Assembly (NCBI GenBank): GCA_048939995.1
Contig: JBHLOY010000002.1
Span: 369,402-433,401, forward strand
From: Promethearchaeota archaeon
GTDB taxonomy: Archaea > Asgardarchaeota > Lokiarchaeia > Sigyniarchaeales > SOKP01
Length of the DNA: 64,000 bases
Direction of reading: 5' to 3'
Each line of letters begins with the position of its first letter. Position 1 is the first letter of the stretch. The position numbers were made by a program, and so were the translations under genes. This document shows positions 22,453-52,475 of this stretch, in pieces. The notes under the pieces were generated by a model. That model was not told the origin of the DNA. It was given only the letters and a program-made list of their open reading frames with translations, and made no database searches.

Positions 22453-22475
22453 CCGACTAGTTTATTCTCCAAAAC

Positions 22476-23570: not shown

Positions 23571-23604
23571 AATTATAATTAAAATAATTAATTAAACATT
23601 TTAT

Positions 23605-28209: not shown

Positions 28210-28280
28210 GTTTAAAATTTCAACTAATTTCAGAAAATTGTTTAAAATTAAGATATTATGATATTGAGCAGTTTAAATTT
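28210..28280 (+). promoter_or_regulatory. Three GTTTAAA(A)TT boxes at 28210, 28240 and 28271 upstream of hdrC
   Basis: Spacing is 30 and 31 bp. Boxes 2 and 3 plus their flanks match 33280/33311 and 42208/42239. Confidence 0.45.
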
Positions 28281-28427
28281 CCCAATCCTATAATAACTAA
28301 AAGAAAAACTTAAATATAAGGAAAAGGTCTATTTTAGCAGACGTGAATAAAGTTAAGTCTATTCTATCTTTTCTAAATTGTTATCTTATCTAAAAAGTTT
28401 GTTAATCAGAAGGAGAATAAAAAATTA

Positions 28428-29024: not shown

Positions 29025-29038
29025 AAGGTCATATAAGG

Positions 29039-32389: not shown

Positions 32390-32425
32390 CTTTATAAAGA
32401 AATAATATGTTAGGTTGAGCGAAAA

Positions 32426-35965: not shown

Positions 35966-36355
35966 GTGTATATTTTGAATAAATTTTATAATGGATTAGA
36001 TGAAAAAATTATTTATGGAACTAAATGCACAAAATGTGCAAAGGTATACTTCCCCCCTAAGGTTTGGTGCCAAAGCTGTTTAGAAAAATCAGTTCAAATG
36101 ATAGAACTGCCTCAGACTGGCATTTTAAAAAATCATCTTAATCGCATTGATTCTAATCATTCTAAGAAAAAAAGAAATGAATTAACAAAGATTTATGGAT
36201 TAGTCCAAATTGATAAGACTGACACTCCATTGATTATGCCACTACTTAATGTTGAACCAGATAATATAAAAGACGGTATGAAAGTCAAAGTAGTATGGGA
36301 AGAAGGTAAAATAAGCGATTCGCAAAAAATTGTAGGTTTTGAACCTGTTATTTAA
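35966..36355 (+). CDS. DUF35-type Zn-ribbon/OB-fold protein
   Basis: Rubredoxin-like CTKCAKVYFPPKVWCQSC followed by an OB-like C-terminus. Confidence 0.65.
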   Translation: MYILNKFYNGLDEKIIYGTKCTKCAKVYFPPKVWCQSCLEKSVQMIELPQTGILKNHLNRIDSNHSKKKRNELTKIYGLVQIDKTDTPLIMPLLNVEPDNIKDGMKVKVVWEEGKISDSQKIVGFEPVI

Positions 36356-36388: not shown

Positions 36389-37753
36389 TTAATAGAATTC
36401 ACAATCATTAAGAAGTTGTGAAATATCCATAACTTTTATCGGTGAGTTGTCCTCGTTTGCGACTTCAAATAAATTATTTTTACAAAAAACGCATGAACTA
36501 ACAAGAACTTCAGCATTTGTTTCCATTGCTTCTTTTAAACGATCTTCCCTTATTCTTATCATACAAGCGCGAGTTTCTGCTAACCTGTCTCTTCCTATTT
36601 CACCTGCTATCTCACCATATAAAGCTTTTACTCCACCTCCAGCTCCACAACACCAGGACATATCTCTGTTATGTTTCATCTCAAATAATTTTACACCTTC
36701 AATCATATTTAGAAGTTCTCTTGGTTCTTCATAAACTCCACAATATCTACCCAGATGACATGGATCGTGATATGTTATAAGTAGAGGATCTTCTTTTGTG
36801 CGCTGTGTATATCGGATTTTTAAATTCCTTTCTTTGACAGTCTTTAATACGAATTGTGTTAAATGATAAAGATCAAATTCAAGCTTATGTCCCGCATACT
36901 TAGTATATTCCAGAGTAAATGTGGAGAAACATCCTGAACAAGAAAATACTAATTCAGATACACCACTTTCCAAAATTGTTTTGTAATTATGTTTTACAAG
37001 CTCAATAGCTTCATCTTCCAACCCAGTTCGGAATAATACTGATCCACAACACCGTTCCTCGGGAAATAATACAAATTCAATTCCAAGTTTTGCTAAAACC
37101 TTGCTTGTTGCAGTTACTAACTCTTTATTTCTATAGGAAGAAGTACATCCAACAAAATACCCTACTTTACCAGGTATACGTTTAGGAACTTTTAATTCAA
37201 CTTCCGCTTTTATTGAATCTAAATCCTGTTTTGCTCGTTGATATGCCTCTCTTCCTTCTTCAACAGCCTCACACCAATTAAATCTGTCCAAATGTTTTTC
37301 TAAAAATGGATTGTTATTCTCAATAATAGAATTTTTTAACACTTTTAATTTTGCAGGGACAGCTCCTTTTTTTACTACTTCTTTACGGAAGTTTTGGAAC
37401 ACTTCTAAAGTATCTATTCCGACGGGGCAAACAACTTTACAGTTACCACAAAGCATACAACGAAATACAGATGGGATTATCTCTTCATTATCGAATTTAA
37501 TATCATGACTATCAAGTGCTTTAATAATCCTATTTCGCCCACCAGCATAATCAGTTTCTGACCATGAAGTGTTATAAACCTTACAAACATGTCTACAGTA
37601 TCCACAATGCGTACAGCGCTCATAGGAGTACTTTTCCTTTCTTTTACTTTTAGGTTCTATTAAATTTTCTTTTGAGGGGGATACTAAACCTGCAACTGGG
37701 GGTCCTGTGGTAACTACATTTCTTATATCTTTCTTTTCTTTGCCTTCACTCAT
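36389..37753 (-). CDS. Fe-S oxidoreductase, GlcF/HdrD-like (2x 4Fe-4S plus two CCG domains)
   Basis: Contains CTHCGYCRHVC, CMLCGNCKVVCP, VGCTSSY..CCGS and HDPCHLGR..WCCGAGGG. Confidence 0.85.
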   Translation of the reverse strand: MSEGKEKKDIRNVVTTGPPVAGLVSPSKENLIEPKSKRKEKYSYERCTHCGYCRHVCKVYNTSWSETDYAGGRNRIIKALDSHDIKFDNEEIIPSVFRCMLCGNCKVVCPVGIDTLEVFQNFRKEVVKKGAVPAKLKVLKNSIIENNNPFLEKHLDRFNWCEAVEEGREAYQRAKQDLDSIKAEVELKVPKRIPGKVGYFVGCTSSYRNKELVTATSKVLAKLGIEFVLFPEERCCGSVLFRTGLEDEAIELVKHNYKTILESGVSELVFSCSGCFSTFTLEYTKYAGHKLEFDLYHLTQFVLKTVKERNLKIRYTQRTKEDPLLITYHDPCHLGRYCGVYEEPRELLNMIEGVKLFEMKHNRDMSWCCGAGGGVKALYGEIAGEIGRDRLAETRACMIRIREDRLKEAMETNAEVLVSSCVFCKNNLFEVANEDNSPIKVMDISQLLNDCEFY

Positions 37754-37888
37754 TTAACTCTTTCTCCTTGTTTTAAACTATACCAAATTAAACATATAAA
37801 CATTTTAAATTAAATTTAATTGTTATATTTTATTTGATTTGATTTTTTATGAACAACATTTTTACTAACTGCTTTTCAAACATTTCTT

Positions 37889-39388
37889 CTAAAAAATTCT
37901 ATATAAGAATTTAGCAGTATTAAATAATAATGATATTCTCCAGAATTTTAATCTAGTTTTAACTATCCGATATGAATTAAACAAATCTTTTGGATCTAAT
38001 AACTTTTTTAATATTTTACTCTTGGATACTAATTCAGGTCTATATTTAAACAAATAAAAAGTATTCACTATACCTATGGTATAAAGCCTATCCCCCTGAG
38101 TAAATGCTAGAACAGAAAGATCATGTAAGAATGCCTTTACTGTAAAGAATTCACTAGTTCTAGCAATATCAGATAAACCAAATACTTTTACTCTACTCCA
38201 ACCTAAAATTCCCGAAATTGTATATAAGGCAGTTGGAAATTTATATTTCTTACTTTTCTTTAAATATTTTTGAATAAAATCTTCTAATCTTTTGTCAGCA
38301 ATCCAATATTCTTGAAATATTAGATTTCTACTTGATCTTCCTATAGCCACTTCAGCATCACTAATATCACGCCACTTTTCCTTTAAATATAATTTATCTA
38401 CTGCTATTCCATTTAATTCTAAAGCATGTTTCTCAGAAAATGATACACTTTGTGATGTTACCTCAGGATCATCATAATAAACTGCCCAAACTAACCATTC
38501 TTGGTCAGGAAAATTGATATGGGAATAGGTTTCAAATTTGCGTTCTGAAATTGATATGAAAAATGGCTTATTAGTATTATTTTTGAGTTTTTGATAAAAT
38601 TCGATAGCTTCACGAATAGATTTAAAGCCATAACCAATTATTTCCAAGGAAGTTTTTAAGGTTGTAAGAGATAATTCAACCTCGGCTATAGCACCGTAGA
38701 TCCCATAAGTTCCACAAATATCATCGAGTGTTATTTGTCCTTTAGAATCCTTCGAAACAGTGATGATTTTTCCATCAGGTTGGACTAGTTTTAAATTAAG
38801 AATTGAATCTTTCATTGATCCGTATTTTAACACACCAATACCGGCAGTACCGGGGGTAGCTATAAACCCTCCAACACAAGATGTTTTAAAGCTTGTAGGA
38901 TAACATTTAGGTGCAAGACCGTAATCTGAAAGTTTTTCTATCAAATTTAACCAAGAGATACCAGCCCCTACTTTTACTGTCATATTTTCTCTATCTATAC
39001 TTTGGATCTGATTTAATCTCCTTGTGTCTATTATAACACCACCTTTCGAGGGAGTAGCTGAAGAAAAGCATGATGTCCCAGCCGCTCTTATTGTAACAGG
39101 AATTTTTCGCTCTCTACATTTCATTATTAGTTTAGAAAGATTATTAATATCAGCAGGACGGACAATTAGACTCGCAAGGTAATTCTTTTTGAATTTATAA
39201 TGGTATGATGGAAGTGAAGTAAGATCAGCAGATGCTGATTCGAGTTCATAAGGATTGGAACTAACATGATAAGACGATATAAAGTCTTTTACAACCTCTT
39301 CAAAATCACGTTTATCTTTTTCTCGTGAATCTATTATATTGGATTCATTATTCATTTCTTTAGTATTAGAATTCATTTTAAATATCAC
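37889..39388 (-). CDS. FAD-binding (PCMH/FAD_binding_4) oxidase, GlcD/D-lactate dehydrogenase-like
   Basis: FAD-binding segment IPVTIRAAGTS..GGVIIDTRRLN..VKVGAGISW. The start lies 9 nt after the stop of 39398..40264. Confidence 0.8.
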   Translation of the reverse strand: MIFKMNSNTKEMNNESNIIDSREKDKRDFEEVVKDFISSYHVSSNPYELESASADLTSLPSYHYKFKKNYLASLIVRPADINNLSKLIMKCRERKIPVTIRAAGTSCFSSATPSKGGVIIDTRRLNQIQSIDRENMTVKVGAGISWLNLIEKLSDYGLAPKCYPTSFKTSCVGGFIATPGTAGIGVLKYGSMKDSILNLKLVQPDGKIITVSKDSKGQITLDDICGTYGIYGAIAEVELSLTTLKTSLEIIGYGFKSIREAIEFYQKLKNNTNKPFFISISERKFETYSHINFPDQEWLVWAVYYDDPEVTSQSVSFSEKHALELNGIAVDKLYLKEKWRDISDAEVAIGRSSRNLIFQEYWIADKRLEDFIQKYLKKSKKYKFPTALYTISGILGWSRVKVFGLSDIARTSEFFTVKAFLHDLSVLAFTQGDRLYTIGIVNTFYLFKYRPELVSKSKILKKLLDPKDLFNSYRIVKTRLKFWRISLLFNTAKFLYRIF

Positions 39389-39397: not shown

Positions 39398-40264
39398 TTA
39401 AAATAATGGAACCATTAAAAAGCCTGAAAAGAAAGCAGCCCACCAGCAAATTAAAGTAATGTAACCAGTTAATTTAGCATACTTTCGCTCTGCTGCAATT
39501 CCAAAAAGCATACTGAAAAGTCCAGCAATTAATCCAACTCCCCCTAATATTATATGAGACCAATGGATTCCAAAGGAGAATGACGTCCAGATTGCAGGAT
39601 TAAAAATTACTAGGGAAATAACATTAATCAGGGTTAAAACCCATGAAGCACCGGCTAGAATACCGTGGATTTTCACAAATTTATTTTCATTTATCAGTAC
39701 CAGTACTGTTCCTAAAGATAATAATAATAAGGCTGATAATCCGATATACATTTCAAAATGATTAAATATTTCAATTGTCGGAGCTGGTGGGAGTATTCCA
39801 CCAATGCTAAAAGTGATCTCTATATAGTCGAAAGGAGGTGGGCTACCAGAAACTGAATTATCTCCAGCTAAGATAAGGATCACATAAGCTCCATCCTCTG
39901 AAGGAGCTGTAATATTGAAAGTGACTGTCATTGCATTTGGATTTGGATTTAAATCATCGCCAGAGTTATCTAATATTCTAGCGCTAGTAGGTGAGATAAT
40001 AAATTGATCATTCTGTTTTCCGTCTGAAGGTGCTTGAATAAACAAATCAGAACCAGTAGCAGTAATATTAAAAGAAATGTTATCTGAAGCGTTGATAGGA
40101 TTAAATGTGTTTATATTAGTTTCAATTGAATAACCTCCCGGTACTGTATGGCAATTTTCATGAGGTTGATCGATACTAGGGTAAGCATTTACATTAAGAA
40201 AAATTGAGATTAGGATAACACCAAAAAAGGCAGATATTATTACTATTGCTTTTTTATTCAACAT
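39398..40264 (-). CDS. Exported H-x-x-C-H motif protein fused to a C-terminal 4-TM His-bearing membrane domain
   Basis: Signal peptide, then AYPSIDQPHENCH, a beta-rich ~140-aa domain (FNITAPSEDGAYVL), and 4 TM helices with His at KIHG and GIHWSH. Confidence 0.7.
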   Translation of the reverse strand: MLNKKAIVIISAFFGVILISIFLNVNAYPSIDQPHENCHTVPGGYSIETNINTFNPINASDNISFNITATGSDLFIQAPSDGKQNDQFIISPTSARILDNSGDDLNPNPNAMTVTFNITAPSEDGAYVILILAGDNSVSGSPPPFDYIEITFSIGGILPPAPTIEIFNHFEMYIGLSALLLLSLGTVLVLINENKFVKIHGILAGASWVLTLINVISLVIFNPAIWTSFSFGIHWSHIILGGVGLIAGLFSMLFGIAAERKYAKLTGYITLICWWAAFFSGFLMVPLF

Positions 40265-40428
40265 TTTTAAAAGACTATAAGAGTTTTGATCAATAAATCA
40301 TGTACTAATATTAATAAAGCTTATTTCTAAAAATTATTAGTGAATTTAAAATTTTAATGTAAAAATCGCACCTAATCTCCTTATAGTTTTTAAAAATCTT
40401 TTTTAATTTTTGAATTTTAATTCTCTTA

Positions 40429-42132
40429 ATGATATTTAATAAGAATTCCTTGAGAACTGTTATTATTTATGATTTTGTAATTATTTTAGCTGTTGTTGTC
40501 ATTATCCCAAATCTATTGAACTTTTTTGATCTAAATCTAAAAATTCAAGTACTATCTTACCTCGCCAACATTCTAATTTTATTAAATATTATCATAGTAG
40601 TTATAGATTTAATCTTCTTGATGTGGAAGAGAGAAAATTATTTGTATCTAACATCATTCAATATGACTCTATCAGTTTCAATTTTTTTGCTGTTAGAGTA
40701 CTGTTTTGTGAATGGTTATTACGATTTTTTTTATGTATGGAGTTATAGTGAATTGACTTTACCACTTGTTTATAAGATTGTTGCTATATGGGCAGGAGAG
40801 GCTGGTTCAATAATGACTTGGATGGTATTTAACTCAGTAATTATTTTTGCCTATAGAATTAAAAACCAAGATAAAGAGGATACAGTTTTTCTATTATCAT
40901 GTATAGTTTCCATGATAATTTCTATTTTGTTTTTAATAATTTTATTCTCACTTAACCCTTTTAAAGTAGAGCAGCCAGTTTTGTATCCCAATGGTTTTGG
41001 ACTCAGCCCTCAATTGATGTCCCCTTTTATGATTTGGCATCCTTTTTTTACATTTTTAGCATATGCCATCTTTCTAATTCCATTCACTATTAATATTATA
41101 AATCTTATAAAACCAAAATTGTCTTTAAGAAATCCTTATCAGCAAGCATTTTATAATTTTTCATTAAAATTTGGATGGTTAGTTATTACCCTAAGTATAG
41201 GTTTAGGAGCTTATTGGGCAAAAATTACTTCCGCTTGGGGCAGATATTGGGGCTGGGACCCAGTAGAGGTTGTATCTCTTATTCCCTGGTTTTTTTGTAC
41301 TGCTTTTTTTCATTCCAGTATATTTAAAGTGAAAAATCCTAGGATTATTAAAATAAATTCCATCTTAATCTTTTTTTCAATAATATTTGCCACCTTAATA
41401 ACTAGGGGAGGAGTATTGAGTTCGCTTCACGCATTTACAGGAGGAGGAGAATTGGTTATATGGGTTTTAATTATTGGTTTTATTTTATTAGCTTTTGCGA
41501 TATATGTAATTTACGAAATTTTAAATTACTTCTTGGAAGACTATCATAAAATTAAGAGCTTTTTTGATTATTTAAGCTATCTGATTTTATTTTGCTTATC
41601 TTTTGTTTGCATTTTTGGACTGATAATTCCTCCTCTAACTAATTTCATATCAAATTTTATCGCAATTGATTCAATAATCATTGGTCCAAACTTCTTTATG
41701 ATTAGCGCATTCATATTAGCTATAATATTGGCAATTTCGCTCATTTTTTGTTCCTTGTGGGATATCTATAACAAAAGGTGGATCATAATCACTTTATTCA
41801 TTGTATTTTTGATACAGTTGATTATTTCATTATTTTTATTTTTTCTATTTGATCTTTGGATAAATCCATTTATTGCCATCTTTTATTATGCTCTTTTTGC
41901 TTCAACCTTTCGATTAATAAAGAGAACGAATCTTCAAATGGGGTTCCAAAAGTTCTTTAGAACAAATTCAAAAACGATTATACATGGAGGAATATCACTT
42001 ATTTTGATAGGGACTTTAATTGATGCCAGTTACGAAGTAATTTTAGATATTTTTTACATTTCTGGATTTGGTTTTTTACTAATTGGGATAATACCCTCTA
42101 TTTTTATGGTTTTTTTTATTAAAGCACATTGA
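40429..42132 (+). CDS. ccmF: Cytochrome c-type biogenesis protein CcmF (haem lyase/haem-handling protein)
   Basis: W-rich motif WGRYWGWDPVEVVSLIPWF, flanking His residues (MIWHPF, AFFHSS) and RGGVLSSLHAF. Confidence 0.85.
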   Translation: MIFNKNSLRTVIIYDFVIILAVVVIIPNLLNFFDLNLKIQVLSYLANILILLNIIIVVIDLIFLMWKRENYLYLTSFNMTLSVSIFLLLEYCFVNGYYDFFYVWSYSELTLPLVYKIVAIWAGEAGSIMTWMVFNSVIIFAYRIKNQDKEDTVFLLSCIVSMIISILFLIILFSLNPFKVEQPVLYPNGFGLSPQLMSPFMIWHPFFTFLAYAIFLIPFTINIINLIKPKLSLRNPYQQAFYNFSLKFGWLVITLSIGLGAYWAKITSAWGRYWGWDPVEVVSLIPWFFCTAFFHSSIFKVKNPRIIKINSILIFFSIIFATLITRGGVLSSLHAFTGGGELVIWVLIIGFILLAFAIYVIYEILNYFLEDYHKIKSFFDYLSYLILFCLSFVCIFGLIIPPLTNFISNFIAIDSIIIGPNFFMISAFILAIILAISLIFCSLWDIYNKRWIIITLFIVFLIQLIISLFLFFLFDLWINPFIAIFYYALFASTFRLIKRTNLQMGFQKFFRTNSKTIIHGGISLILIGTLIDASYEVILDIFYISGFGFLLIGIIPSIFMVFFIKAH

Positions 42133-42207
42133 CTGAAAAAAACAGCTTAATTTCCGCCAGAATTTCTCAATATTTCGATTTTTAAATTAAACTTTTTTGG
42201 GGAAATT

Positions 42208-42248
42208 GTTTCAGCTTGAAACTAAAAGCAAATTGATTGTTTAAATTA
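42208..42248 (+). promoter_or_regulatory. Two-box motif (degenerate GTTTCAGCTT at 42208, GTTTAAATTA at 42239) upstream of 42372
   Basis: GAAATTGTTTcagcTTGAAACT matches AAAATTGTTTAAAATTGAAACT at 33274..33295. Box spacing is 31 bp. Confidence 0.4.
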
Positions 42249-42371
42249 CTCAGATTAGAAAAAAGTTAAAAATTGTTAAACTTATTATAAAATTAATTAT
42301 CAAACTTTGTTAAAATCTAATTTAAAGTTTAAAAATTAGACGTAATAATAACAACTTAAATGTGAATTTTA

Positions 42372-44768
42372 ATGAAAAACAAAAAACGCAAGCTATTATC
42401 CCTTATTATTGTTATCTGCTCTTTACTTCTATTTACTGGATTTACAATTGCTTATACAAGTTACTTTGATGATTTTAATGGAACATCTCACGGCACTTCT
42501 TGCCACTTTAGCTCTTCAACTCAAAGTAGTACGGGATATTTATCAATAGTATCAAGTTCAGGAAATACCGTAAATCCCGGTGAGAATTTTATACTATCTG
42601 TTCAAGTAAAAAGTTTCAGCGAAGCAGATGGAAAAGAACTTAAATTTGGTTTTCCTAGTGGCACTCCAGGCAGAGGAGATAATAAGCAATTTGGTTTTAA
42701 TACCACAATGGTCTCTGCAGATATAACTTCTGGAGATTCAGCGATATTTGATTTTCTAGTTAATGCACCTCTGACAGAGCAATCATATACTTTAACTGCT
42801 GATGCAATATACCGAAAGAGTGGTAGTGAGACTATATGGGCGTCTACTAATTATATAGTAACAGTCCAAACTTCCTCAGACATTTTACCCCCAGAGCTCA
42901 TCATTATCGATCCGAAAGATAATGAATACAAAAATGGCAATATATTGATTAATGCAAGTGTTATTGACAATGGAGGTTCAGGTCTTAATACAGTATGGGC
43001 AGAAATTACTAATAATAACTCTTTTAATCAAACTGTTTCAATGAATTTAAACACTGATCCATATTATAACGCTATTTGGGATTCAACTTCTGCGCTTGAT
43101 GGTCCTTATACTATAAATGTGAAAGCTAATGATGGAGCCTTTAATATTAATGATACAGAATCTGTAAATGTGATCATTGACAACACCGCGCCCTCAATTG
43201 TTTTAAATAGTGTGCTCCCAAATCCTTCAAATGGATTAACATCTATAAGAGCAATGAATTTTAGTTCAGATATCAATAATTATGGGATTAGGGCAACTAT
43301 AACAACTCCCACTGCTAACAAAATTTTCCTTGATCTAATATATCAAGGAGGAAATGAATGGAACAATACATTTACTATAACCCAAAATGGAATATATTCT
43401 GTTCAGATAAATGCAAGTGACTATTTAGGAAATATTAATATTTCATCCTCATTAAGCATTAATGGAGACATTTTAAATCCTTTTGTTGATATTACAAGTC
43501 CTGGAAATGATGGAGATACCATCGGGGGAGATACTATTATTATAAGCGGATGGGCATATGGTACAGGTACTAACATTGTAAGTTTATTTATAAACGATTC
43601 AAGATGGGGAATTACTCAGAATAAACCCCAGATTGACCCCAGCGGCACTTCTAGTGGACCATTCAGTTTTGAAAATAATAGTTATATATCTCCAGGATTT
43701 TATTGGGTTGAAGTTAACATTACAGACGCTGCTGGAAATATAAATATAAGTAAAAGATATTTCGAAGTCGTTTCGAACGATATTTTTCCACCTATCCTTG
43801 TTTTTAGCTTAATAAATCCAAATCCATCAAATGGTTTTACTAATATTACTGTTATATCAAATGAACCATTAATAGGAAATCCATTGTTAAGTATAACCAC
43901 TCCAAATAGTACTACTATTTATAGAACACTTTATCCTACGGGGGTTCCGAGAACATGGATAACCAATTATACAATTCATGAAACAGGAACTCACTTTATA
44001 CAAGTAAATGGAACAGATCTTCATTCAAATGTGGGTTTTAAAACGGATTCATTTTATGGAGATATTGATGCACCTTGGATTACCCTTGATAATGTTTATC
44101 CAAATCCATCCAATGGCTTAACGTTAATAACTGCTTTTAATGCAAGCTCGGATATTGATATAAATGGATTATGGGCCACAATAACAACACCTAGTAAATC
44201 AATTTCCATTCAACTTAATTATCAAGAGAACAGTAAGTGGAATGCAACCTTCATAGTAACTGAAGATGGAACTTATTCCATCCAAGTAAATGCGACTGAT
44301 TTTGCTGGAAACACAAACATTACAGACTTAATTTATATTACTGGTGATATTAGTACTCCAATTTTATCAATAATTTCACTTCCAATTGAGAGTGGGGTTA
44401 ATGCTCCAAACTTTTCTATCTCCATAACAGAGCCAAATTTAGATGGCATATGGTATTCACTATATAATGGCATTTACTGGTCTCAAAATATCACTATTAT
44501 TGGATTTAATGGGACTTTAGAGCAATCTTTATGGGATACCATGCCTACAGGGGATATCTTAATTAGGTTTTATGCAAATGATACGTTAGGACACATAGGA
44601 TATATAGATATTACTATTAGTAAAAATATACCCCAGACGAATATCAATCCTGGGGAAGGAACAGTATCAGGATTCGATTTAGGTATAATAATCGCAACGA
44701 CTTCAGCGATTCCACTTATATTTATAATTCTATGGCTAAAATCAAGGACAAAAAGATTTATTCGATAA
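42372..44768 (+). CDS. Large surface protein: signal peptide, H-x3-C-H motif domain, multiple Ig-like repeats, C-terminal TM anchor
   Basis: Starts AYTSYFDDFNGTSHGTSCH. The N-domain is homologous to 47724..48377 (RGDNxQFG, FDFL.NAP..Y.L). Three ~95-aa repeats contain PNPSNG(L/F)T. The anchor is SGFDLGIIIATTSAIPLIFIILWLKSRTKR. Confidence 0.8.
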   Translation: MKNKKRKLLSLIIVICSLLLFTGFTIAYTSYFDDFNGTSHGTSCHFSSSTQSSTGYLSIVSSSGNTVNPGENFILSVQVKSFSEADGKELKFGFPSGTPGRGDNKQFGFNTTMVSADITSGDSAIFDFLVNAPLTEQSYTLTADAIYRKSGSETIWASTNYIVTVQTSSDILPPELIIIDPKDNEYKNGNILINASVIDNGGSGLNTVWAEITNNNSFNQTVSMNLNTDPYYNAIWDSTSALDGPYTINVKANDGAFNINDTESVNVIIDNTAPSIVLNSVLPNPSNGLTSIRAMNFSSDINNYGIRATITTPTANKIFLDLIYQGGNEWNNTFTITQNGIYSVQINASDYLGNINISSSLSINGDILNPFVDITSPGNDGDTIGGDTIIISGWAYGTGTNIVSLFINDSRWGITQNKPQIDPSGTSSGPFSFENNSYISPGFYWVEVNITDAAGNINISKRYFEVVSNDIFPPILVFSLINPNPSNGFTNITVISNEPLIGNPLLSITTPNSTTIYRTLYPTGVPRTWITNYTIHETGTHFIQVNGTDLHSNVGFKTDSFYGDIDAPWITLDNVYPNPSNGLTLITAFNASSDIDINGLWATITTPSKSISIQLNYQENSKWNATFIVTEDGTYSIQVNATDFAGNTNITDLIYITGDISTPILSIISLPIESGVNAPNFSISITEPNLDGIWYSLYNGIYWSQNITIIGFNGTLEQSLWDTMPTGDILIRFYANDTLGHIGYIDITISKNIPQTNINPGEGTVSGFDLGIIIATTSAIPLIFIILWLKSRTKRFIR

Positions 44769-44785
44769 CCTTTTAAAAAGTAAAA

Positions 44786-44794
44786 TTTTTTTTT
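44786..44794 (+). terminator. T9 run downstream of 42372..44768
   Basis: Oligo-T tract 18 nt after the stop codon. Confidence 0.35.
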
Positions 44795-44857
44795 AATTTA
44801 TTAATTTAAGATAATTAAATTGCTTCATTTGAGACTATTAAATCTTAGAACTTTAAG

Positions 44858-45580
44858 TTGAAGAATTTGGCTATTAAAAATAAAGAAATCATCAATTGTA
44901 AAAATGTTTCAAAGCAATTTGGATATTTCTTTGCATTAAAAGATATTTCATTCAAAGTAATAGCAAATACTATCTTTGGGATTGCAGGAGCAAATGGAGC
45001 AGGTAAAACAACACTGATTAAGATTTTATCTGGATTAATGAATCCTTCTTCTGGAAAAGTATACATTCAAGGTAATAATTATACTGAAAATCCGTTTTTG
45101 ATTAAGGAAATGATAGGAATTAATACTGAGGAATCTTTTCTTTATGAGGAGTTGACTATTAATGAAAATCTAGAGTTTTATGATAATCTTCATTACAACT
45201 TCAATAAAAGTCAGATAAGAAATAAAGTAGAAAACTATGCAGAATTATTTGAAATTCACGATTGGTTAGATGAACCCATTCGGAATTTATCTCATGGAAT
45301 GAAACAAAAAGTTGAAATAATTAGAGTTTTAATGCATGAGCCTTCAATATTGTTCTTAGATGAACCCTTTTCAGGTTTAGACTTTAAAGCAACTAAATTA
45401 TTAATAAATTTACTTCAGAATTTAAAAAAAGGAAAAAATGTAACAATAATACTAACTACTCATAAAATTGATGTATTATCAAAAATCTATGATGATTTAA
45501 TCATTTTAAAAAAGGGAAAAATCAACAAATTCATTACAAAAGAAACTTATGAAGAATTTGAAATAGAATCATATTTTTGA
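44858..45580 (+). CDS. ccmA: ABC transporter ATPase, CcmA-like by context
   Basis: Walker A GANGAGKTT, signature LSHGMKQK and Walker B ILFLDEP. TTG start. It is immediately followed by a CcmB-like gene. Confidence 0.75.
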   Translation: MKNLAIKNKEIINCKNVSKQFGYFFALKDISFKVIANTIFGIAGANGAGKTTLIKILSGLMNPSSGKVYIQGNNYTENPFLIKEMIGINTEESFLYEELTINENLEFYDNLHYNFNKSQIRNKVENYAELFEIHDWLDEPIRNLSHGMKQKVEIIRVLMHEPSILFLDEPFSGLDFKATKLLINLLQNLKKGKNVTIILTTHKIDVLSKIYDDLIILKKGKINKFITKETYEEFEIESYF

Positions 45581-45589
45581 GCTAGCATA

Positions 45590-46306
45590 ATGGAGATAAA
45601 ATTTAAAGATAGAATTAAGTTATTCTTTTCTATATTAAGAAAAGATTTAAAATCTGAAATCCGTCAAATAAACGATATATTTTCAATATTTCTTTTTGAT
45701 GTTATATCTATTTTTATATTTTCATCAGTATATAGCTTCAGTACACAATATCAACAGATCCCGCTTGAAATATTTATAATTGAGGTCTGGTTAATAATTT
45801 TTTTTACTCTTATTTTTATAATGGCTAAATTATTCATTAAAGAAAAAGAATCTGGAACCTTAGGAGGATTAATTTCTTCGCCAATTTCAGCCAACACAAT
45901 AATATTTAGTAAGGTAATTTTTTGTTTTATTCTATTGAGCTTTATCGAAATCATTCTTTTTCTCTTTAGTTTCTTTATTTCTAATCCTTTAATACCCAAT
46001 TTACAATTTAATAATGTGATAAATTATATACTCTTAGGGATTATTTTACCAACATTAGATTTATCAATCTGTGGGACAATAGTATCAGCAATTTCTATGT
46101 ATGCTAAGAAAAAATCTTTTATTATACCACTTATCCTATTTCCGATAATATTGCCAATAACAATCCCAATAATATCGATTAATATTAAATTGTTAGAATT
46201 AGCTGCGTTTCTTGAATTAACTTATGAAATTTTATTTTTAGTTTCACATATTATTCTTATGACTTCAATATTAGCTTTAGTTTCTCAAAATCTTCTTTTT
46301 GATTGA
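45590..46306 (+). CDS. ccmB: Haem exporter membrane protein CcmB-like
   Basis: 6-TM protein with KEKESGTLGGLISSPIS, matching the CcmB E-x-x-GTLE-x-L-x-x-SP segment. Start is 10 nt after ccmA. Confidence 0.65.
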   Translation: MEIKFKDRIKLFFSILRKDLKSEIRQINDIFSIFLFDVISIFIFSSVYSFSTQYQQIPLEIFIIEVWLIIFFTLIFIMAKLFIKEKESGTLGGLISSPISANTIIFSKVIFCFILLSFIEIILFLFSFFISNPLIPNLQFNNVINYILLGIILPTLDLSICGTIVSAISMYAKKKSFIIPLILFPIILPITIPIISINIKLLELAAFLELTYEILFLVSHIILMTSILALVSQNLLFD

Positions 46307-46309
46307 AAA

Positions 46310-46648
46310 TTAGCTACACTGAATGAGAATTTGGCTTGCTTTTAAAATCAACGTAATGTTGAATTGACCTGCAACCACTATTTCAATTCCATTTTTTAGT
46401 TCGCTTGGTACAGTAATTTGAGAAACATCGATTAAAATTGTATCATCATTCTCTGTCAAATTAAAGTTGCCCCCTGAAAAGCCTTCTACAATCCCAATTA
46501 CTTGAATTTCAAGATTATCATATTCTGTAGGATTGGAAACAACCTGAGAAACCCTAAGATATGGTCGTATATTAATAACTACTAATATAATAATAAGAAC
46601 TAATGAAAAAATAATTGCTATTATTGCTATAATCTTCGCTTTTTTCAA
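46310..46648 (-). CDS. ccmE: CcmE-like haem chaperone, Cys variant with truncated C-terminus
   Basis: An N-terminal TM anchor plus an OB-fold-like pattern (YLRVSQVV, IQVIGIV, FNLTEND, IEIVVAGQF). The C-terminus ..LKASQILIQCS aligns with ..EVLAKHDExY. Confidence 0.65.
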   Translation of the reverse strand: MKKAKIIAIIAIIFSLVLIIILVVINIRPYLRVSQVVSNPTEYDNLEIQVIGIVEGFSGGNFNLTENDDTILIDVSQITVPSELKNGIEIVVAGQFNITLILKASQILIQCS

Positions 46649-46667
46649 TTTAATCTCTTGCTATTTG

Positions 46668-46805
46668 TTATTTTTCTAATTTATTAATTCTTTTTTTTAT
46701 TTTTCTTATACGTAATTTTGGATATAAGATTAAAATAACAATAATAGTCCAAAACAAGGCATAACTGATAGCCATTGTAATAGAATCTAAAACAACCTCG
46801 GACAT
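46668..46805 (-). CDS. CcmD-like small membrane protein (45 aa, absent from the ORF track)
   Basis: Own translation: MSEVVLDSITMAISYALFWTIIVILILYPKLRIRKIKKRINKLEK. It has one TM helix and a basic tail. The ATG lies 5 nt after the ccmC stop, and the ORF ends 19 nt before the ccmE start. Confidence 0.45.
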   Translation of the reverse strand: MSEVVLDSITMAISYALFWTIIVILILYPKLRIRKIKKRINKLEK

Positions 46806-46810
46806 TACTT

Positions 46811-47611
46811 TTAATCATCTCGTAACTTATTTTGAATAATTTCATTTAATTTTTGTTTATTTTTATCTAGTTCAACTAAATTTCTTACCACATAAACGAA
46901 AAAGAGAGTCATCGCTATCAAGTTAAGAAATAATATAAGAAGTTTCATAAAATCCCAATAAATATAACCTGATTCACTTGGATTTGGAGTTATTAATGGA
47001 TGTAAACTTGTAAAAATGATTGCAGAAAGATAACTTAAAGGCACTGTTGGAAAAAAAATAATTCCTAAAATTGAAGTTAATTTAGCTCTCCTTTCTCTAT
47101 CTTCAATCATAGTCCCAAAAATTAAATAAGATAAATATGAGAGAAACAAGACTAAAGTCATAGTTTGTCGCGGGTCACTCCACTGCCAATAAACATTATT
47201 ATAAAGTCCCGAAGTAGCATTATACCAGAGTGATCCTGTGATAAGTGTTACTGCACAAAAAAATACACCTACGACAATACTATTCTTTCCTATACTATTC
47301 CAGAATAGTTTTCTTTGTATGAGGTATAATATATGACAAATAAGACTTACTCCAAATGAAAAGTAGGAAAGCCAAGCTGATGAAACATGATAAAAAAAAA
47401 TCATATACACAATGCGGCTAAAATTTGTCAATAAAAAAATCAAAAATAAGTTAATGATGAGGAATGAAATTGAAATGATAAGTAAATAATCTTTTTTTAC
47501 CCAACTTCTGATGTCTTTCATCTTAATTCTCAAATAAATATAAAATTTTGTATTGAGTGAGTTATAATTAATATTATTGCTGTTAATACTTTCAATATTA
47601 AAAAAGATCAA
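46811..47611 (-). CDS. ccmC: Cytochrome c biogenesis haem-handling protein CcmC
   Basis: W-rich motif NVYWQWSDPRQT and conserved His residues (FFYHVSSAW, SLHPL). The true start is probably Met31 (ATG at 47521..47519). Confidence 0.8.
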   Translation of the reverse strand: MIFFNIESINSNNINYNSLNTKFYIYLRIKMKDIRSWVKKDYLLIISISFLIINLFLIFLLTNFSRIVYMIFFYHVSSAWLSYFSFGVSLICHILYLIQRKLFWNSIGKNSIVVGVFFCAVTLITGSLWYNATSGLYNNVYWQWSDPRQTMTLVLFLSYLSYLIFGTMIEDRERRAKLTSILGIIFFPTVPLSYLSAIIFTSLHPLITPNPSESGYIYWDFMKLLILFLNLIAMTLFFVYVVRNLVELDKNKQKLNEIIQNKLRDD

Positions 47612-47690
47612 AAAAGTCTTTTAATCCTTATAATTGGAAGTTATTTTAATTCATTTTTAAAATTTGTTCTTATGGAATAATGGTTATTTC

Positions 47691-47705
47691 AAAAAAAAAA
47701 AAAAA
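47691..47705 (-). terminator. T15 run (A15 on the + strand) immediately downstream of 47724..48377
   Basis: Uninterrupted 15-nt homopolymer between the stop of the HAGCH protein gene and ccmC. Confidence 0.45.
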
Positions 47706-47723
47706 TGATAGATTTAAATTGAA

Positions 47724-48377
47724 CTATTTAGAAGCTTTACGTTTCTTTCGATATACTAATACGACTATAAGTGAGGCAGTTGTAATGGCAAGTACTCCAA
47801 CCAAAGTATAAATTTCAAATCCAGGAATAGCTCCACCGCTAACAGTCAAAACTACATTGCCTGAAGCATAAATAATACTCAGAGCAGAGCCATCAGTGTG
47901 ATTTGCGGCAGTTAAAACGTCAACAACTAGGTTATAAGTACCATCTGTAGATGGAGCTAGTAAATCAAAAGAAACTGAAACATTAGCATCTCCATTAACA
48001 TCTAAAGTAATTCCTCCTAATCTTATTGGTTCACTTAATTTTTTGCCAAATTGAGCATTATCACCACGAGTAGAAGCGACTGCCACACTCACTTGACTAT
48101 CTCTATCTATAGTTAATGCTTCAGTAAAATTTGTAATTACTACATTTACAGTAAACTCTTGGCCTGCTGTTAGTGATGTACCCTGAATGGAGACAACGGT
48201 TACTGCAGCGCCAGCGCTTTCTGTAGTAGGACCATCCCCAACATGACATCCAGCATGTGAACCACCAAGAAAGCTTTCAATGGAAGATGGGTAGGCAACC
48301 GCACCACCAACTAAAACTAGAAGAAAAGCAAATACGGCAATAAGAGGGATTATTTTTCTTTTCATTTGATTAGCCAC
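47724..48377 (-). CDS. Surface-anchored H-x-x-C-H motif protein with PGF-CTERM-like anchor
   Basis: Signal peptide, then AYPSSIESFLGGSHAGCH, a ~150-aa beta-rich domain (RGDNAQFG, FDLLAPSTDGTYNL), and the C-terminus IPGFEIYTLVGVLAITTASLIVVLVYRKKRK. Confidence 0.75.
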   Translation of the reverse strand: MANQMKRKIIPLIAVFAFLLVLVGGAVAYPSSIESFLGGSHAGCHVGDGPTTESAGAAVTVVSIQGTSLTAGQEFTVNVVITNFTEALTIDRDSQVSVAVASTRGDNAQFGKKLSEPIRLGGITLDVNGDANVSVSFDLLAPSTDGTYNLVVDVLTAANHTDGSALSIIYASGNVVLTVSGGAIPGFEIYTLVGVLAITTASLIVVLVYRKKRKASK

Positions 48378-48804: not shown

Positions 48805-49368
48805 ATGCAATTAGATAATATTGATAAACAAATACTAAACGCCTTATTCAAAAATGGACGAGAAAGCTTAACTAGTTTAGAGAAAATAATAATTAAATCT
48901 GATACAGAAACTATGAGTCATACTGGTATTGCTAAAAGGATAACAAAATTAGAAGATAATGATCTTATTAAAGTTCAAGCTAATACTAATTTAAATAAAC
49001 TCCAATATAAAGGCCTATTTTTGTTAATGGAAATGGTTAATTTTGAGGAAGTTCAAAATATTATTAAAGCATACAGCGATTGCCCTAGAGTATTTTTAAT
49101 GGCGCCTGTAACTGGACAATACAATTTAATTTTAGGTGTCGTAGGGCAAAATCTTGATATTTTACACCGATATTTAAATTATTGTGGTCCCACGAATAAA
49201 AAAGGGATTTTGCATTCTGCTGTGATGTTTACTACAGATCTTATTAAACCAAAATATGTTCCCATTGACTTATTCAGCCAAGAAAGCCATGAGATTGATT
49301 GTGGGAATGTGTGTAAAAATTGTGCTGCTTATCTTGATGGAAAATGTAATGGTTGCGGAAATTTTTAA
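48805..49368 (+). CDS. Lrp/AsnC-like transcriptional regulator with C-terminal Cys-rich tail
   Basis: N-terminal LDNIDKQILNALFKNGRESLTSL HTH pattern, a RAM-like middle region, and the tail CGNVCKNCAAYLDGKCNGCGNF. Confidence 0.6.
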   Translation: MQLDNIDKQILNALFKNGRESLTSLEKIIIKSDTETMSHTGIAKRITKLEDNDLIKVQANTNLNKLQYKGLFLLMEMVNFEEVQNIIKAYSDCPRVFLMAPVTGQYNLILGVVGQNLDILHRYLNYCGPTNKKGILHSAVMFTTDLIKPKYVPIDLFSQESHEIDCGNVCKNCAAYLDGKCNGCGNF

Positions 49369-49574: not shown

Positions 49575-50888
49575 ATGGCAGTAAAAGTCGCATTTTACCA
49601 ATGTTCAGATTGCTGGGGCTGTCATCAATCCTTAATAAACGCTCATCTAGGGTTGTTGCCAGTATTACCAGCACTAGATATTGTGTACTGGCCGGCAGTG
49701 ATTGATATGAAATATGATTCTTTAAAATCTAGACCAGACGGAGATATCTTAGTAGGTTTCATTGAAGGAAGTCTTAGAACAAATGATGACGTAGAAAGTG
49801 CTAAATTAATGAGGGCTAAATGCAAACTTATCATATCATTTGGTTCTTGTGCATGTTATGGTAATGTACATGGATTAGCAAATCAATGGGATATCCAAGA
49901 GTTAATTAATCGGAAATTTGGTGAAGTGGAAAGCATTACTAATGAATCACCACATGAACCAAAAGAACATGTCCCTGGGTTCGCCGCTAAAATTGTACCG
50001 TTAGATGAAATTATTCAGGTTGATGCGTATATTTCAGGATGCCCACCTAAACCAGAAGCTATTATTAGTGCAGTACAGTTCCTACTTGGTCAAAAGCCAT
50101 TCCCTTCCAATGAAATACCATTCTGTAATGATTGTGCTATAAAAAATGAATGTCTATTAGATTCAGGAACGCTATGTTTTGGACCAATTACTAGTACCGG
50201 ATGTAATTTAAAGTGTACTAGTGACAGAAACCCATGTGTAGGTTGTTATGGACCATCTAAAACGATAGATATGAGAGCAGAAAAATTAAATACAATGACA
50301 AAAAGTCTATATACACCCAATACAGGAGATAAAAAAAGTTTTCATGAATTTTTAACGCTATTTCTAAATATCCCATTAATGGCAGGTTTTGATCTTTCTG
50401 GAGATCTTTTAAAGCAGATCAAGAAACGAGGATTTGTTCAATCCCCATTAGCAAATTTACCTTCAACTACGGAAGAAATTGCATCTAATTTAATGAAATA
50501 TATGGCTAATAATCCAGATTTTCACGAGATCTCGAATGTGTGTGATACATGTCCTAGAATTATTGGTAGTAAATCAACAATGACAAAAGTAAAAAGAGAT
50601 TATGAAGGACTCCCTAATATGGAAGATTGCTTCATTGAACAAGGATACATTTGTATGGGACCTGTGACTAAAGCTGGTTGCGGTGGTTTATGCATAAAGG
50701 TTAACGCACCTTGTACTGGTTGCTTTGGGCAGACCAAATGGGGTGTTAATCAAGCAGAGAGATTTGCTGATACTGTAATTAAGGGTTTCAATGTGAGTTT
50801 ATCTAAAGAAGAGCTACTTGCTCAGGTAAAAGATCATATTGGTACTTTTGAAAAATTTACATTTGCATCAAGAAAAGGAGGTATATAA
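49575..50888 (+). CDS. Group 3 [NiFe]-hydrogenase small subunit (MvhG/VhuG-like), extended form
   Basis: Carries CWGC, GSCACYG and SGCPP proximal-cluster ligands plus two further Cys-rich modules. It lies directly upstream of the large subunit. Confidence 0.85.
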   Translation: MAVKVAFYQCSDCWGCHQSLINAHLGLLPVLPALDIVYWPAVIDMKYDSLKSRPDGDILVGFIEGSLRTNDDVESAKLMRAKCKLIISFGSCACYGNVHGLANQWDIQELINRKFGEVESITNESPHEPKEHVPGFAAKIVPLDEIIQVDAYISGCPPKPEAIISAVQFLLGQKPFPSNEIPFCNDCAIKNECLLDSGTLCFGPITSTGCNLKCTSDRNPCVGCYGPSKTIDMRAEKLNTMTKSLYTPNTGDKKSFHEFLTLFLNIPLMAGFDLSGDLLKQIKKRGFVQSPLANLPSTTEEIASNLMKYMANNPDFHEISNVCDTCPRIIGSKSTMTKVKRDYEGLPNMEDCFIEQGYICMGPVTKAGCGGLCIKVNAPCTGCFGQTKWGVNQAERFADTVIKGFNVSLSKEELLAQVKDHIGTFEKFTFASRKGGI

Positions 50889-50891
50889 AAT

Positions 50892-52196
50892 ATGACAAAA
50901 GAAATAGATGTAGAGCCTGTAACTCGATTAGAAGGGCATGGAGGGTTGCGATTGGTTTTAGGAGATGATGGAACAGTACAAGATGTGCAATTTAACATCA
51001 CATCGACAAGATTTTTTGAGAAATTTTTAGAAGGTCGTTACTGCGAGCATATAAACCGGATTACGCCTCGGATTTGTGGAATTTGTCCCATTCCTCATCA
51101 TTTATCACCAACGAAAGCTGTAGAAGATGCTTGGGGTGTTGAAATTCCCACACCAGCCTTAAAATTACGAAAGTTGCTCATTAATGCAAAGCAATACTCC
51201 TCTCATGCTTTACATTTCTATGCATTGGCAGCACCAGATTTCTTATTAGGACCTATGGCAGATCCTGCATTAAGAAATGTGGTTCATGTAATCAATAAAA
51301 TGCCAGATGTTGGAGCTATGGCTCTAAAAATGATGGATTTTGGTCAAAAATTATGCGCGGCTATTGGGGGTAAGTCTGTGCATCCTATTTCAGCTATTGT
51401 TGGTGGGATGAAAAAAGCAATGGATGAAGATGCTCGAGATTTATTCTTAAAGCAAATTGGAGATCAAGTTGAATGGACGAAAAAGACAGTAGATATCGGA
51501 TTGAAAGTTGTCGAGGATTACTGGGATGTTGTTGCAAACGTAGGAGTTGTACCTACATACTATGCTGGGATGACTAAAAATGGAGTTCATGATATTTATG
51601 AAGGAGATCTTAGGATTGTATCTCCTGATGGACAGAAATTTGATTATCCGCCTCAAAAATATTTAGAGGTATTAGGTGAATATATTCCTGAACATTCATA
51701 TGCTACCCATATGTATTACAAGCCTGCTGGATACCCTGAAGGGATTTATCGGGCGAATACATTGGCTATGATTAATGCCGCTGATAGAATGGCAACTCCT
51801 TTAGCTGATGAAGCATTAAGGGCAATGAGAGATAAGGTTGGTGCTATTTCGCATCACACATTTGCTTATCATTGGGCAAGATTAATTGAATTAGTAGAAT
51901 CTATTGAGATGATTGCTACATTACTTCAAGATCCAGATATACTCAATCCAGATTGTAAAACATTAGATGTACAACCTAGAGAGGCTGACGGAGTCGGTTT
52001 AGTAGAAGCACCTCGTGGTCTATTACTATATCATATTTGGTCAGATGCTGATGGTCTATGTAAAAAGGCTAACCTTTTAGTAGCTACCAATCATAATATT
52101 GCAGGAATTGAAAAAACTTTAAAATTCGTAGCGAAGCAAGTATTTGAACAAAACGCTTTGGCCGGATTAAAATTACCAGACCCTTGGATAAAATAA
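50892..52196 (+). CDS. vhuA: [NiFe(Se)]-hydrogenase large subunit lacking the C-terminal Ni-ligand motif (VhuA-like)
   Basis: N-terminal RLEGHG and RICGICPIPHH motifs. The ORF ends ..LKLPDPWIK without any DPCxxCxxH motif. Confidence 0.9.
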   Translation: MTKEIDVEPVTRLEGHGGLRLVLGDDGTVQDVQFNITSTRFFEKFLEGRYCEHINRITPRICGICPIPHHLSPTKAVEDAWGVEIPTPALKLRKLLINAKQYSSHALHFYALAAPDFLLGPMADPALRNVVHVINKMPDVGAMALKMMDFGQKLCAAIGGKSVHPISAIVGGMKKAMDEDARDLFLKQIGDQVEWTKKTVDIGLKVVEDYWDVVANVGVVPTYYAGMTKNGVHDIYEGDLRIVSPDGQKFDYPPQKYLEVLGEYIPEHSYATHMYYKPAGYPEGIYRANTLAMINAADRMATPLADEALRAMRDKVGAISHHTFAYHWARLIELVESIEMIATLLQDPDILNPDCKTLDVQPREADGVGLVEAPRGLLLYHIWSDADGLCKKANLLVATNHNIAGIEKTLKFVAKQVFEQNALAGLKLPDPWIK

Positions 52197-52228
52197 AATT
52201 AAAAAGATATAAAGGCGATATAAAAGAA

Positions 52229-52381
52229 ATGAGTGAAGAAATACCAGAAGGAGTAGTAAATCTTTTAGAAATGGTAGTTCGCTGTTTTGATTGCTGACTA
52301 TCGTGTGCCGCACACATCACCGTTGTTGATGAAAAAGGCTCTGAGATTTACTCTCGCGAGTTAAATGTTGGCTTAGGATGA
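52229..52381 (+). CDS. vhuU: VhuU-like selenopeptide: separately encoded C-terminal Ni-ligand segment of the large subunit, Sec codon TGA at 52295..52297
   Basis: Own translation: MSEEIPEGVVNLLEMVVRCFDC-U-LSCAAHITVVDEKGSEIYSRELNVGLG. It aligns with the E-M-V-I-R-x-Y-D-P-C-L-S-C-A-T-H large-subunit C-terminus, and the TGA falls at the first Cys position. Confidence 0.8.
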
Positions 52382-52438
52382 ATATCCAATATAAACAATA
52401 GATTGGATACAACTGCCCATGCACGGGTTAAAGCCAAC
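52367..52438 (+). ncRNA. Candidate SECIS-like stem-loop overlapping the vhuU stop codon and 3' UTR
   Basis: Outer stem GTTGGCTT (52367..52374) pairs with AAGCCAAC (52431..52438). Inner stem TATCCAAT (52383..52390) pairs with ATTGGATA (52402..52409), enclosing an 11-nt loop. A GAA lies 5' of the inner stem. This is the only GC-enriched patch in the spacer. Confidence 0.3.
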
Positions 52439-52475
52439 CAAAATATAAAATAAAAAAGAAAGAAGAAACGGAATA

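Follow-up and report, generated by a model that had tools for sequence, protein, structure and literature searches.

A System I cytochrome c maturation cluster of Asgard archaea and three candidate haem proteins with an H-x(2-3)-C-H motif

A stretch of 64,000 nucleotides from a Promethearchaeota archaeon (GenBank assembly GCA_048939995.1, contig JBHLOY010000002.1, positions 369,402 to 433,401), referred to below as the window, encodes a cytochrome c maturation (Ccm) cluster of the System I type, in which the ccm genes are interleaved with genes for three exported proteins that carry H-x(2-3)-C-H instead of CXXCH. Our hypothesis is that this variant System I matures single-thioether cytochromes, through which electrons released by a cytoplasmic dehydrogenase would reach the surface of the cell. 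We assign this model as a whole a probability of roughly 0.65; the narrower proposal that haem c is attached at the Cys-His pair merits higher confidence. The window is AT-rich (GC 24-37% in 2-kb windows), and the closest relatives of its proteins are encoded in Asgard metagenome-assembled genomes (MAGs) labelled Promethearchaeota or Hodarchaeota. The functional unit exceeds the interval 39398-48377 that had been delimited in an earlier note on this DNA, as a flavin adenine dinucleotide (FAD) dehydrogenase and an Fe-S/CCG subunit at 36389-39388 belong to it too. The genes and motifs of the unit, in window positions, are as follows.

36389-37753, minus strand: Fe-S/CCG subunit, HdrD/GlcF-like (Pfam CCG 1.2e-32 plus Fer4_8/17), third in the order H4TM-FAD-CCG
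37889-39388, minus strand: FAD-binding subunit of the VAO/PCMH type, GlcD/D-lactate-dehydrogenase-like (PF01565, 3.7e-34)
39398-40264, minus strand: H4TM, 288 amino acids (aa), with signal peptide, HENCH, beta-sandwich and four-helix membrane domain
40148-40162, minus strand: HENCH of H4TM (by translation), with Cys38 as proposed haem attachment residue and His39 as proposed axial ligand
40429-42132, plus strand: CcmF haem lyase (PF01578, 2.9e-24; TIGR00353, 2e-41)
42372-44768, plus strand: Big798, a predicted surface protein of 798 aa with an N-terminal HGTSCH domain, immunoglobulin (Ig)-like repeats and a C-terminal transmembrane (TM) anchor
42489-42506, plus strand: HGTSCH of Big798 (by translation)
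44858-45580, plus strand: CcmA, ABC ATPase (ABC_tran, 2.1e-31)
45590-46306, plus strand: CcmB, ABC permease (PF03379, 1.3e-11)
46310-46648, minus strand: CcmE, Cys-type, shortened (PF03100, 28.5 bits against a cut-off of 24.6)
46668-46805, minus strand: CcmD-like membrane open reading frame (ORF), 45 aa (PF04995, 21.1 bits against a cut-off of 25.6; TIGR03141, 18.2 bits; both below cut-off)
46811-47611, minus strand: CcmC (PF01578; TIGR01191, 6e-21)
47724-48377, minus strand: S217, a predicted surface protein of 217 aa with signal peptide, HAGCH, beta-sandwich, IPGFE, TM helix and basic tail
48243-48257, minus strand: HAGCH of S217 (by translation)

The three exported proteins are paralogues. 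BLASTP matched S217 to Big798 with an E-value of 2e-17 and to H4TM with 1e-5, over the first ~170 residues, and hidden Markov models (HMMs) of the family matched only these three among the ORFs of the window. In all three, a Lys-rich N-terminus leads into a hydrophobic helix and then an A-x-A-type site (the cleavage site was placed by inspection); in AlphaFold2 (AF2) models, the signal helix was located at residues 4-24 and 6-23. The database form of S217 starts at an ATG four codons in. The motifs HENCH, HGTSCH, and HAGCH, which the earlier note had described as holding the only Cys of each exported portion, were confirmed by translation. They lie 11-17 residues past the predicted cleavage site, and their Cys is the sole one outside signal peptide and membrane helices in each of the three proteins. 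A lipobox was considered for this residue and ruled out, since 11-17 residues, charged ones among them, separate the hydrophobic core from the Cys, and an invariant His comes next. A thioester, prompted by the complement macroglobulin (MG) domains among the fold matches, was ruled out as well, as a CGEQ-type motif was not present.

An exhaustive HMM search of 1.8 billion cluster representatives yielded 166 relatives at E ≤0.001. When 61 diverse short members were aligned (alignment A3; mean column identity 14%), C44 and H45 of S217 were the sole invariant columns. The position ahead of this pair is less constrained. Among 106 listed representatives (of 50%-identity clusters) with an N-terminal CH, the nearest upstream Cys or His was a His in 72 cases and a Cys in 24, and neither was present in 10. 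The check for invariance of the complete H..CH set that had been proposed in the earlier note thus came out in favor of the Cys-His pair and not of the first His. The Cys forms comprise CNNCH, CDTCH, CNSCH, CSGCH, CSTCH, CRSCH, and CGGCH, as well as CX4-5CH. When H4TM-type proteins were aligned jointly, His35 was found to share its column with the first Cys of CNSCH, CSTCH, and CGGCH. The window proteins, with H-x(2-3)-C-H, do not match the c-type patterns CXXCH, CXnCH, or CXXCK; orthologues have CXXCH in the same column. Inside ccm clusters, 75 of 75 full-length family members contain H-x(2-4)-C-H, and on this count a chance origin of the motif is excluded. A first position that is free to vary, next to a fixed Cys-His pair, is the pattern expected of a haem-c site; in a His/Cys/His metal site, all three residues should be fixed.

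One genome per GTDB species was scanned for the locus, which resulted in 26 loci, all from Asgard MAGs and none from a cultured strain. In 24 of them, whose MAGs bear the labels Promethearchaeota, Hodarchaeota, Hermodarchaeota, or Thorarchaeota, gene order is shared: S217 (one or two genes), ccmC-(D)-E, ccmB-A, in some cases a Big protein, then ccmF, H4TM, FAD, and CCG. One or two copies of S217 precede ccmC in most loci, homologues of Big798 with 876-1513 aa occupy the same position in 16 related loci, CcmA is paired with CcmB in every related locus, and wherever a related locus extends to CCG (30 loci), this gene comes after FAD. One further locus of the 26 ends at a contig edge.

The single real exception was locus L030. 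It encodes a membrane-only H4TM of 127 aa (9971-10354, plus strand) with all four His of the membrane domain, and FAD and CCG come next. Within 10 kb upstream, neither ccm genes nor S217 nor the N-terminal domain were found, and the sole Big798-like match, an ORF of 1138 aa at 16445-19861, is located 6 kb downstream of CCG and has no N-terminal motif domain. The putative haem-c domain, its paralogues, and the ccm genes are therefore missing jointly. The gap in L030 is filled by two small membrane-protein ORFs.

A sister lineage (L033, 1-8048; L037; L038) encodes orthologous membrane proteins of 285-296 aa with CNSCH or CSTCH, still located between ccmF and FAD-CCG. Genes for alternative haem biosynthesis (GlutR, HemC, HemD/CobA, NirDL-like, and AhbD-like radical SAM) stand beside ccmBA in this lineage. 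A signal-peptidase-I-like gene (SDSMEP motif) was observed between ccmA and ccmF. No ccmG/H was seen in the CXXCH cluster of the sister lineage, and in two further loci of the CNSCH lineage, obtained from a metagenome scan, ccmE was found in neither.

Taken from these comparisons, namely the invariance of Cys-His, the exchange of Cys and His at one column, the synteny, and the joint absence in L030, the Cys-His pair is likely the site of haem attachment and the three proteins are likely the substrates of the adjacent ccm set. The assignment made in the earlier note is hence supported by comparative evidence.

The Ccm machinery appears complete. The earlier assignments of ccmF, ccmA/B, ccmC, and a Cys-type ccmE were all confirmed by Pfam/NCBIfam profile searches. 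For the CcmD-like ORF, only part of the assignment stood: in most related loci a conserved frame of this kind separates ccmC from ccmE, and the profile scores of the 45-aa frame are below the curated cut-offs. CcmF possesses a WWD motif (WGRYWGWDPVE) and exactly four invariant His residues (204, 295, 334, and 519; 27 sequences), and both motif and His align with the structure of CcmF from T. thermophilus (6ZMQ). In CcmC, the real start of which is probably an internal Met ~30 codons downstream, a Trp-rich motif of the WWD type is found, and His75, His93, His204, W142, and W144 are invariant. CcmE has a single Cys (Cys111, 46316-46318), which is the penultimate residue and the sole conserved Cys or His of the protein. 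Its C-terminus reads Q-C-S-stop in 24 of 25 related loci and Q-C-S-T-stop in one, so that the Tyr of CXXXY is missing. Judged by its sequence, this CcmE is a variant of its family and not a standard member, as it passes the Pfam cut-off and does not contain (H/C)XXXY. By residue conservation, the CcmABC(D)EF set is complete and intact.

The statement of the earlier note that ccmG, ccmH, thioredoxin genes, and exported CXXCH proteins are absent held within the window. Pfam was applied to ~43 of the larger ORFs, among which CcmG, CcmH, and CcmI were not found; this negative refers to the window only. A thioredoxin-type WCxxC did not occur in any window ORF. CXXCH in window ORFs of ≥80 aa was restricted to cytoplasmic Fe-S and hydrogenase proteins, with no exported CXXCH protein in the window and no other one in the H-type loci either. 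The explanation that had been offered, according to which a motif with a single Cys would render CcmG/H dispensable, is not supported. CcmABCEF was reported by Gupta et al. to suffice in Methanosarcina (M. acetivorans), CcmD/H/I were stated to be absent from archaeal genomes, and CcmG/CcdA were considered dispensable, also for substrates that have CXXCH (PMC9084895); the CXXCH cluster of the sister lineage is likewise without ccmG/H. As archaeal Ccm systems lack CcmH anyway, the absence of CcmG/H is ordinary and needs no special explanation.

The cluster resembles the streamlined archaeal CcmABCEF systems and the Desulfovibrio variant in its core, its Cys-type CcmE, and the WWD motif and four His of CcmF, and also in that CcmH/I, CcmG, and CcdA were not found in it. 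It differs from them in CcmE, which stops at Q-C-S without the Tyr of CXXXY, although archaeal CcmE has been said to have CXXXY 'universally' (PMC9084895). Further differences from archaeal System I are the CcmD-like ORF and adjacent candidate substrates with HXXCH rather than CXXCH. As far as the sequences indicate, it is these three features, CcmE without Tyr, the CcmD-like ORF, and candidate substrates without the first Cys, that are out of the ordinary.

Confident models of H4TM and S217 were generated with AF2, with predicted local distance difference test (pLDDT) values of 81 and 87.6, respectively. Both show a signal/anchor helix, then the motif loop, then a beta-sandwich, which in H4TM comprises residues 46-154 and is accompanied by four TM helices. 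The motif loop of H4TM (residues 24-40) is the sole stretch of ≥3 residues with a pLDDT <50, and the loop of S217 is of lower confidence as well. Low values in the H4TM loop would be expected of a cofactor site that was modelled in the absence of its ligand.

In an alignment of 58 H4TM sequences (A4), H35, C38, H39, H169, H200, and H237 were invariant, and H234 was conserved at ≥90%. According to the modelled topology, the outer ends of TM1 and TM3 carry H169 and H234/H237, respectively, and the inner end of TM2 carries H200; a partner for H200 was not identified. On the basis of this arrangement, the membrane domain probably forms one or more haem b sites. The H4TM family also has an invariant Pro at position +2 of the predicted mature end. 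Cytochrome f is a c-type cytochrome with a beta-sandwich fold, CXXCH near the mature N-terminus, and a C-terminal anchor, in which the amino group of an X-Pro N-terminus (Tyr1-Pro2) serves as sixth ligand. The Pro of H4TM recalls this N-terminus and is to be taken as a lead, not as a test; cytochrome f was absent among the 50 best Foldseek matches listed.

The two paralogues without a membrane domain show features of surface proteins. S217 terminates in IPGFE, a TM helix, and the basic tail RKKRKASK; its scores with the sorting-signal models are 22.2 bits for Heimdall-CTERM (cut-off 24) and 17.4 bits for Loki-CTERM (cut-off 19.9). Big798 contains Big_13, Big_7, and Filamin repeats between the N-terminal domain and the anchor, and ends in a TM helix and a basic tail without a match to a sorting model. 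Surface display of S217 and Big798 is plausible, since in both a PGF-like motif is followed by a TM helix and a basic tail at the C-terminus.

A comparable architecture is known from the NF041895 family ('choice-of-anchor V'/MXAN_6652), in which the N-terminal domain of surface proteins is combined with alternative C-terminal anchors. Against a cut-off of 42 bits, S217 scored 21.4 bits (E=2e-4) and Big798 16.2 bits, and H4TM gave no match. A bacterial protein with CGGGGCH (P0221), which was also retrieved in the family HMM search, scored 89 bits, which supports a remote link of the domain to NF041895, and archaeal CXXCH variants scored 20-40 bits. The window proteins are thus at best a divergent sister group of NF041895. 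We know of no haem-binding annotation for that family.

The genes downstream of H4TM complete the proposed electron route. H4TM and FAD are separated by 9 bp and FAD and CCG by 135 bp, and in every locus the three stand head to tail on one strand. The best relatives of the FAD protein in the PDB are glycolate oxidase, LctD, and D-lactate dehydrogenase (1e-17 to 1e-14); the CCG protein is related to HdrB and an 'iron-sulfur-binding reductase' there and is HdrD/HdrB-like. The combination of an HdrD-like Fe-S/CCG protein with a membrane haem subunit is reminiscent of HdrDE, DsrMK, and HmeCD, and the pairing of a FAD_binding_4 2-hydroxyacid dehydrogenase with a CCG protein resembles GlcDEF and D-lactate dehydrogenase (Dld-II). 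The module differs from the HdrDE and GlcDEF types in that an unrelated four-helix domain is fused to a putative extracellular haem-c domain, with no evidence of a quinone site.

The following mechanism would be consistent with these observations. CcmA, CcmB, CcmC, the CcmD-like peptide, the shortened Cys-type CcmE, and CcmF would export haem and attach it covalently to the beta-sandwich proteins, the Cys of the motif providing a thioether and the adjacent His the proximal iron ligand. With His in place of the first Cys of CXXCH, attachment of the haem would rest on a single thioether. H4TM, FAD, and CCG would constitute a three-subunit membrane dehydrogenase. Electrons from a substrate of the 2-hydroxyacid type would pass via FAD, Fe-S/CCG, and membrane haem b to the outward haem c, and from there via surface cytochromes to an external acceptor or a syntrophic partner; a reverse flow may also be possible. 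Of the two surface members, S217 would be the short one, and in Big798 the Ig-like repeats would serve as a stalk.

Single-thioether haem c has a precedent in the mitochondrial cytochromes c and c1 of Euglenozoa (AAQCH, FAPCH), which were called unique in this respect and are made by a divergent HCCS (PMC8262978). Their likeness to the window proteins is that the first Cys is replaced and the second Cys and the His are kept. However, the euglenozoan proteins are all-alpha class I cytochromes matured by HCCS (KCCS), whereas here a beta-sandwich, System I, a conserved His, and variable spacing are combined.

Several observations weigh against the proposed model. Foldseek comparison of the H4TM and S217 models with the PDB resulted in generic beta-sandwiches of the Ig, CARDB, and complement-MG types and in no haem protein, and a profile search of PDB sequences gave only a marginal match, in which the signal-peptide/motif region was paired with a 'lipoprotein cytochrome c' (E=0.12). 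The distance from the first His to Cys-His varies from 2 to 6 residues, which is looser than in the classical motifs, and neither a conserved Met nor a second His that could act as distal ligand was seen in the alignment of the short paralogues. H4TM as a whole belongs to no Pfam/NCBIfam family, its membrane domain has no Pfam/NCBIfam match, and it does not correspond to a known cytochrome b family. A distant member from Heimdallarchaeota LC_2 (L036, 10001-10975) has a lone CH (GSGCH) with no upstream His or Cys and is located among molybdopterin biosynthesis and unrelated genes, with no ccm within 10 kb; the bacterial family protein with CGGGGCH, from a type IX secretion system (T9SS), is not beside ccm genes either. 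Finally, single-Cys cytochromes were found to be 'very poor substrates' of E. coli Ccm and became trapped on CcmE (PMC3268396), so that the Asgard system would require an altered specificity.

The role of the first His can be read in more than one way, since its interchange with Cys and the spacing of 1-6 residues do not discriminate among a passive replacement, a distal ligand, and a second covalent link. His-vinyl bonds to haem occur at His130 of CcmE and at His117 of the cyanobacterial GlbN. An extended version of the model, possible though doubtful in our judgment, would assign an active part to this residue, either in a second covalent bond to a haem vinyl group or as distal axial ligand, so that the family would represent a new class of haem-c centre, with co-evolution of CcmE and CcmF and interspecies electron transfer. 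The Cys-only shortened CcmE and the CcmH-less CcmF would then have co-evolved and would resolve the adduct of CcmE, haem, and substrate that stalls in E. coli.

The proteins might also be true Ccm substrates with another task, such as sensing, haem or iron handling, or detoxification (e.g., as peroxidase-type enzymes at a five-coordinate haem), with the membrane domain as a mere anchor for FAD and CCG. One haem per protein is poorly suited to long-range wiring, the lack of a conserved distal ligand fits an open coordination site, and Big798 with its Ig repeats is adhesin-like. We nevertheless regard this alternative as unlikely, given that H4TM is directly upstream of the dehydrogenase and the HdrD-like subunit in all loci, that four conserved His residues are present at both membrane faces of the 4-TM domain, and that the flanking Mvh/Hdr genes provide a setting of energy metabolism.

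If no haem were bound at all, H...CH could bind Cu, Zn, or Fe, or could matter for structure or sorting in surface proteins of the 'choice-of-anchor V' type. Ordinary CXXCH cytochromes from other parts of the genome would then be the substrates of the Ccm proteins, and the adjacency of the three genes to ccm would reflect a shared envelope function. His, Cys, and His are a plausible metal set, and such proteins would account for the missing match to a haem-protein fold, the lack of an obvious distal ligand, and the relatives in Heimdallarchaeota LC_2 and bacteria that are not near ccm. The CXXCH census covers the window and the H-type loci, which leaves the rest of the genome to such cytochromes. 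On the other hand, orthologues whose gene context is identical have canonical CXXCH in exactly this column, and Cys-His alone is invariant and the first His is not. The family is interleaved with ccm in 24 species and jointly absent with it in L030, haem biosynthesis genes adjoin the sister-lineage cluster, and no other candidate substrate was found in any H-type locus. This reading is accordingly quite improbable.

Least probable, and in our view scarcely credible, is that the His-type proteins are degenerate relatives of true CXXCH cytochromes and have lost covalent haem, with haem b bound non-covalently or not at all and with CcmABCDE exporting or delivering haem to the membrane domain or to EB_dh-type proteins. 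In favor of this reading, no thioether can be formed by a His in the first position, the membrane domain probably binds haem b, and L003 and L004 have EB_dh proteins close to the cluster. Against it, 75/75 cluster members retain the second Cys and the His, which would be unexpected once covalent attachment was lost, the WWD motif and four His of CcmF are kept in every locus, and the Euglenozoa provide a precedent for single-thioether haem c (PMC8262978).

Should single-thioether attachment by this variant System I prove true, maturation of H-x(n)-C-H with a Tyr-less CcmE would constitute a natural experiment on haem release from CcmE and on the number of thioethers needed. Natural single-Cys haem c has been reported only for euglenozoan mitochondria (PMC8262978), and no description of HXXCH or of a ccm cluster in Asgard archaea was found in the literature. 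The ccmC/E/F context figure of the FESNov paper concerns the bacterial class HRBIN17, with a divergent ccmD, and not the S217/H4TM family. In a 2025 preprint (10.1101/2025.02.26.640444), cytochrome c was described as absent in Heimdallarchaeia, as judged by the classical domain, with room left for 'uncharacterized proteins'; the absence leaves gaps in electron transport. The beta-sandwich fold and the lack of CXXCH would make the present family invisible to classical cytochrome c searches. If the electron route does lead outward, models of Asgard syntrophy, on which ideas about eukaryogenesis draw, would gain an alternative to H2 or formate. With an active first His, the family might represent the 'missing' cytochromes c of Asgard archaea and would point to direct extracellular or interspecies electron transfer in lineages that have been modelled with only H2 or formate.

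The genes next to the cluster were also inspected. The following feature borders it on one side.

48805-49368, plus strand: AsnC-type helix-turn-helix (HTH) protein with a Cys-rich C-terminus (weak HTH_AsnC match), a possible regulator of uncertain membership in the unit

Its sequence contains CGNVCKNC…CNGCGNF. The gene is found next to the cluster in 18 loci, one of which is L030 with its lack of ccm genes. The protein could be a regulator or could be siroheme-decarboxylase-like. On the other side, just past CCG, 17 loci share a large leucine-rich repeat (LRR)/HEAT-repeat protein (33706-35778, plus strand), and 7 loci share a zf-ChsH2 (DUF35-type) protein (35966-36355, plus strand).

Around the module, two Mvh/Hdr-like sets (26440-33100 and 49575-53861) and HypF/D/E maturation genes (20053-24657) were found. 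One flank encodes MvhG-like, HdrC/B/A, MvhD-like, and polyferredoxin proteins, and the other MvhG, MvhA, and HdrC/B-like proteins. By these gene assignments, the block sits in an energy-metabolism neighbourhood (Mvh/Hdr and Hyp genes).

In two related loci, haem-b-type proteins of the EB_dh family (PF09459) are encoded directly upstream of the S217 genes (L003, 1-392; L004, 918-3042). One EB_dh protein of L003/L004 gave a weak match to the family HMM and has no CH motif. A NosD-like right-handed beta-helix protein of 730 aa (3500-5692, minus strand) is also encoded in the window and is unrelated to the module.

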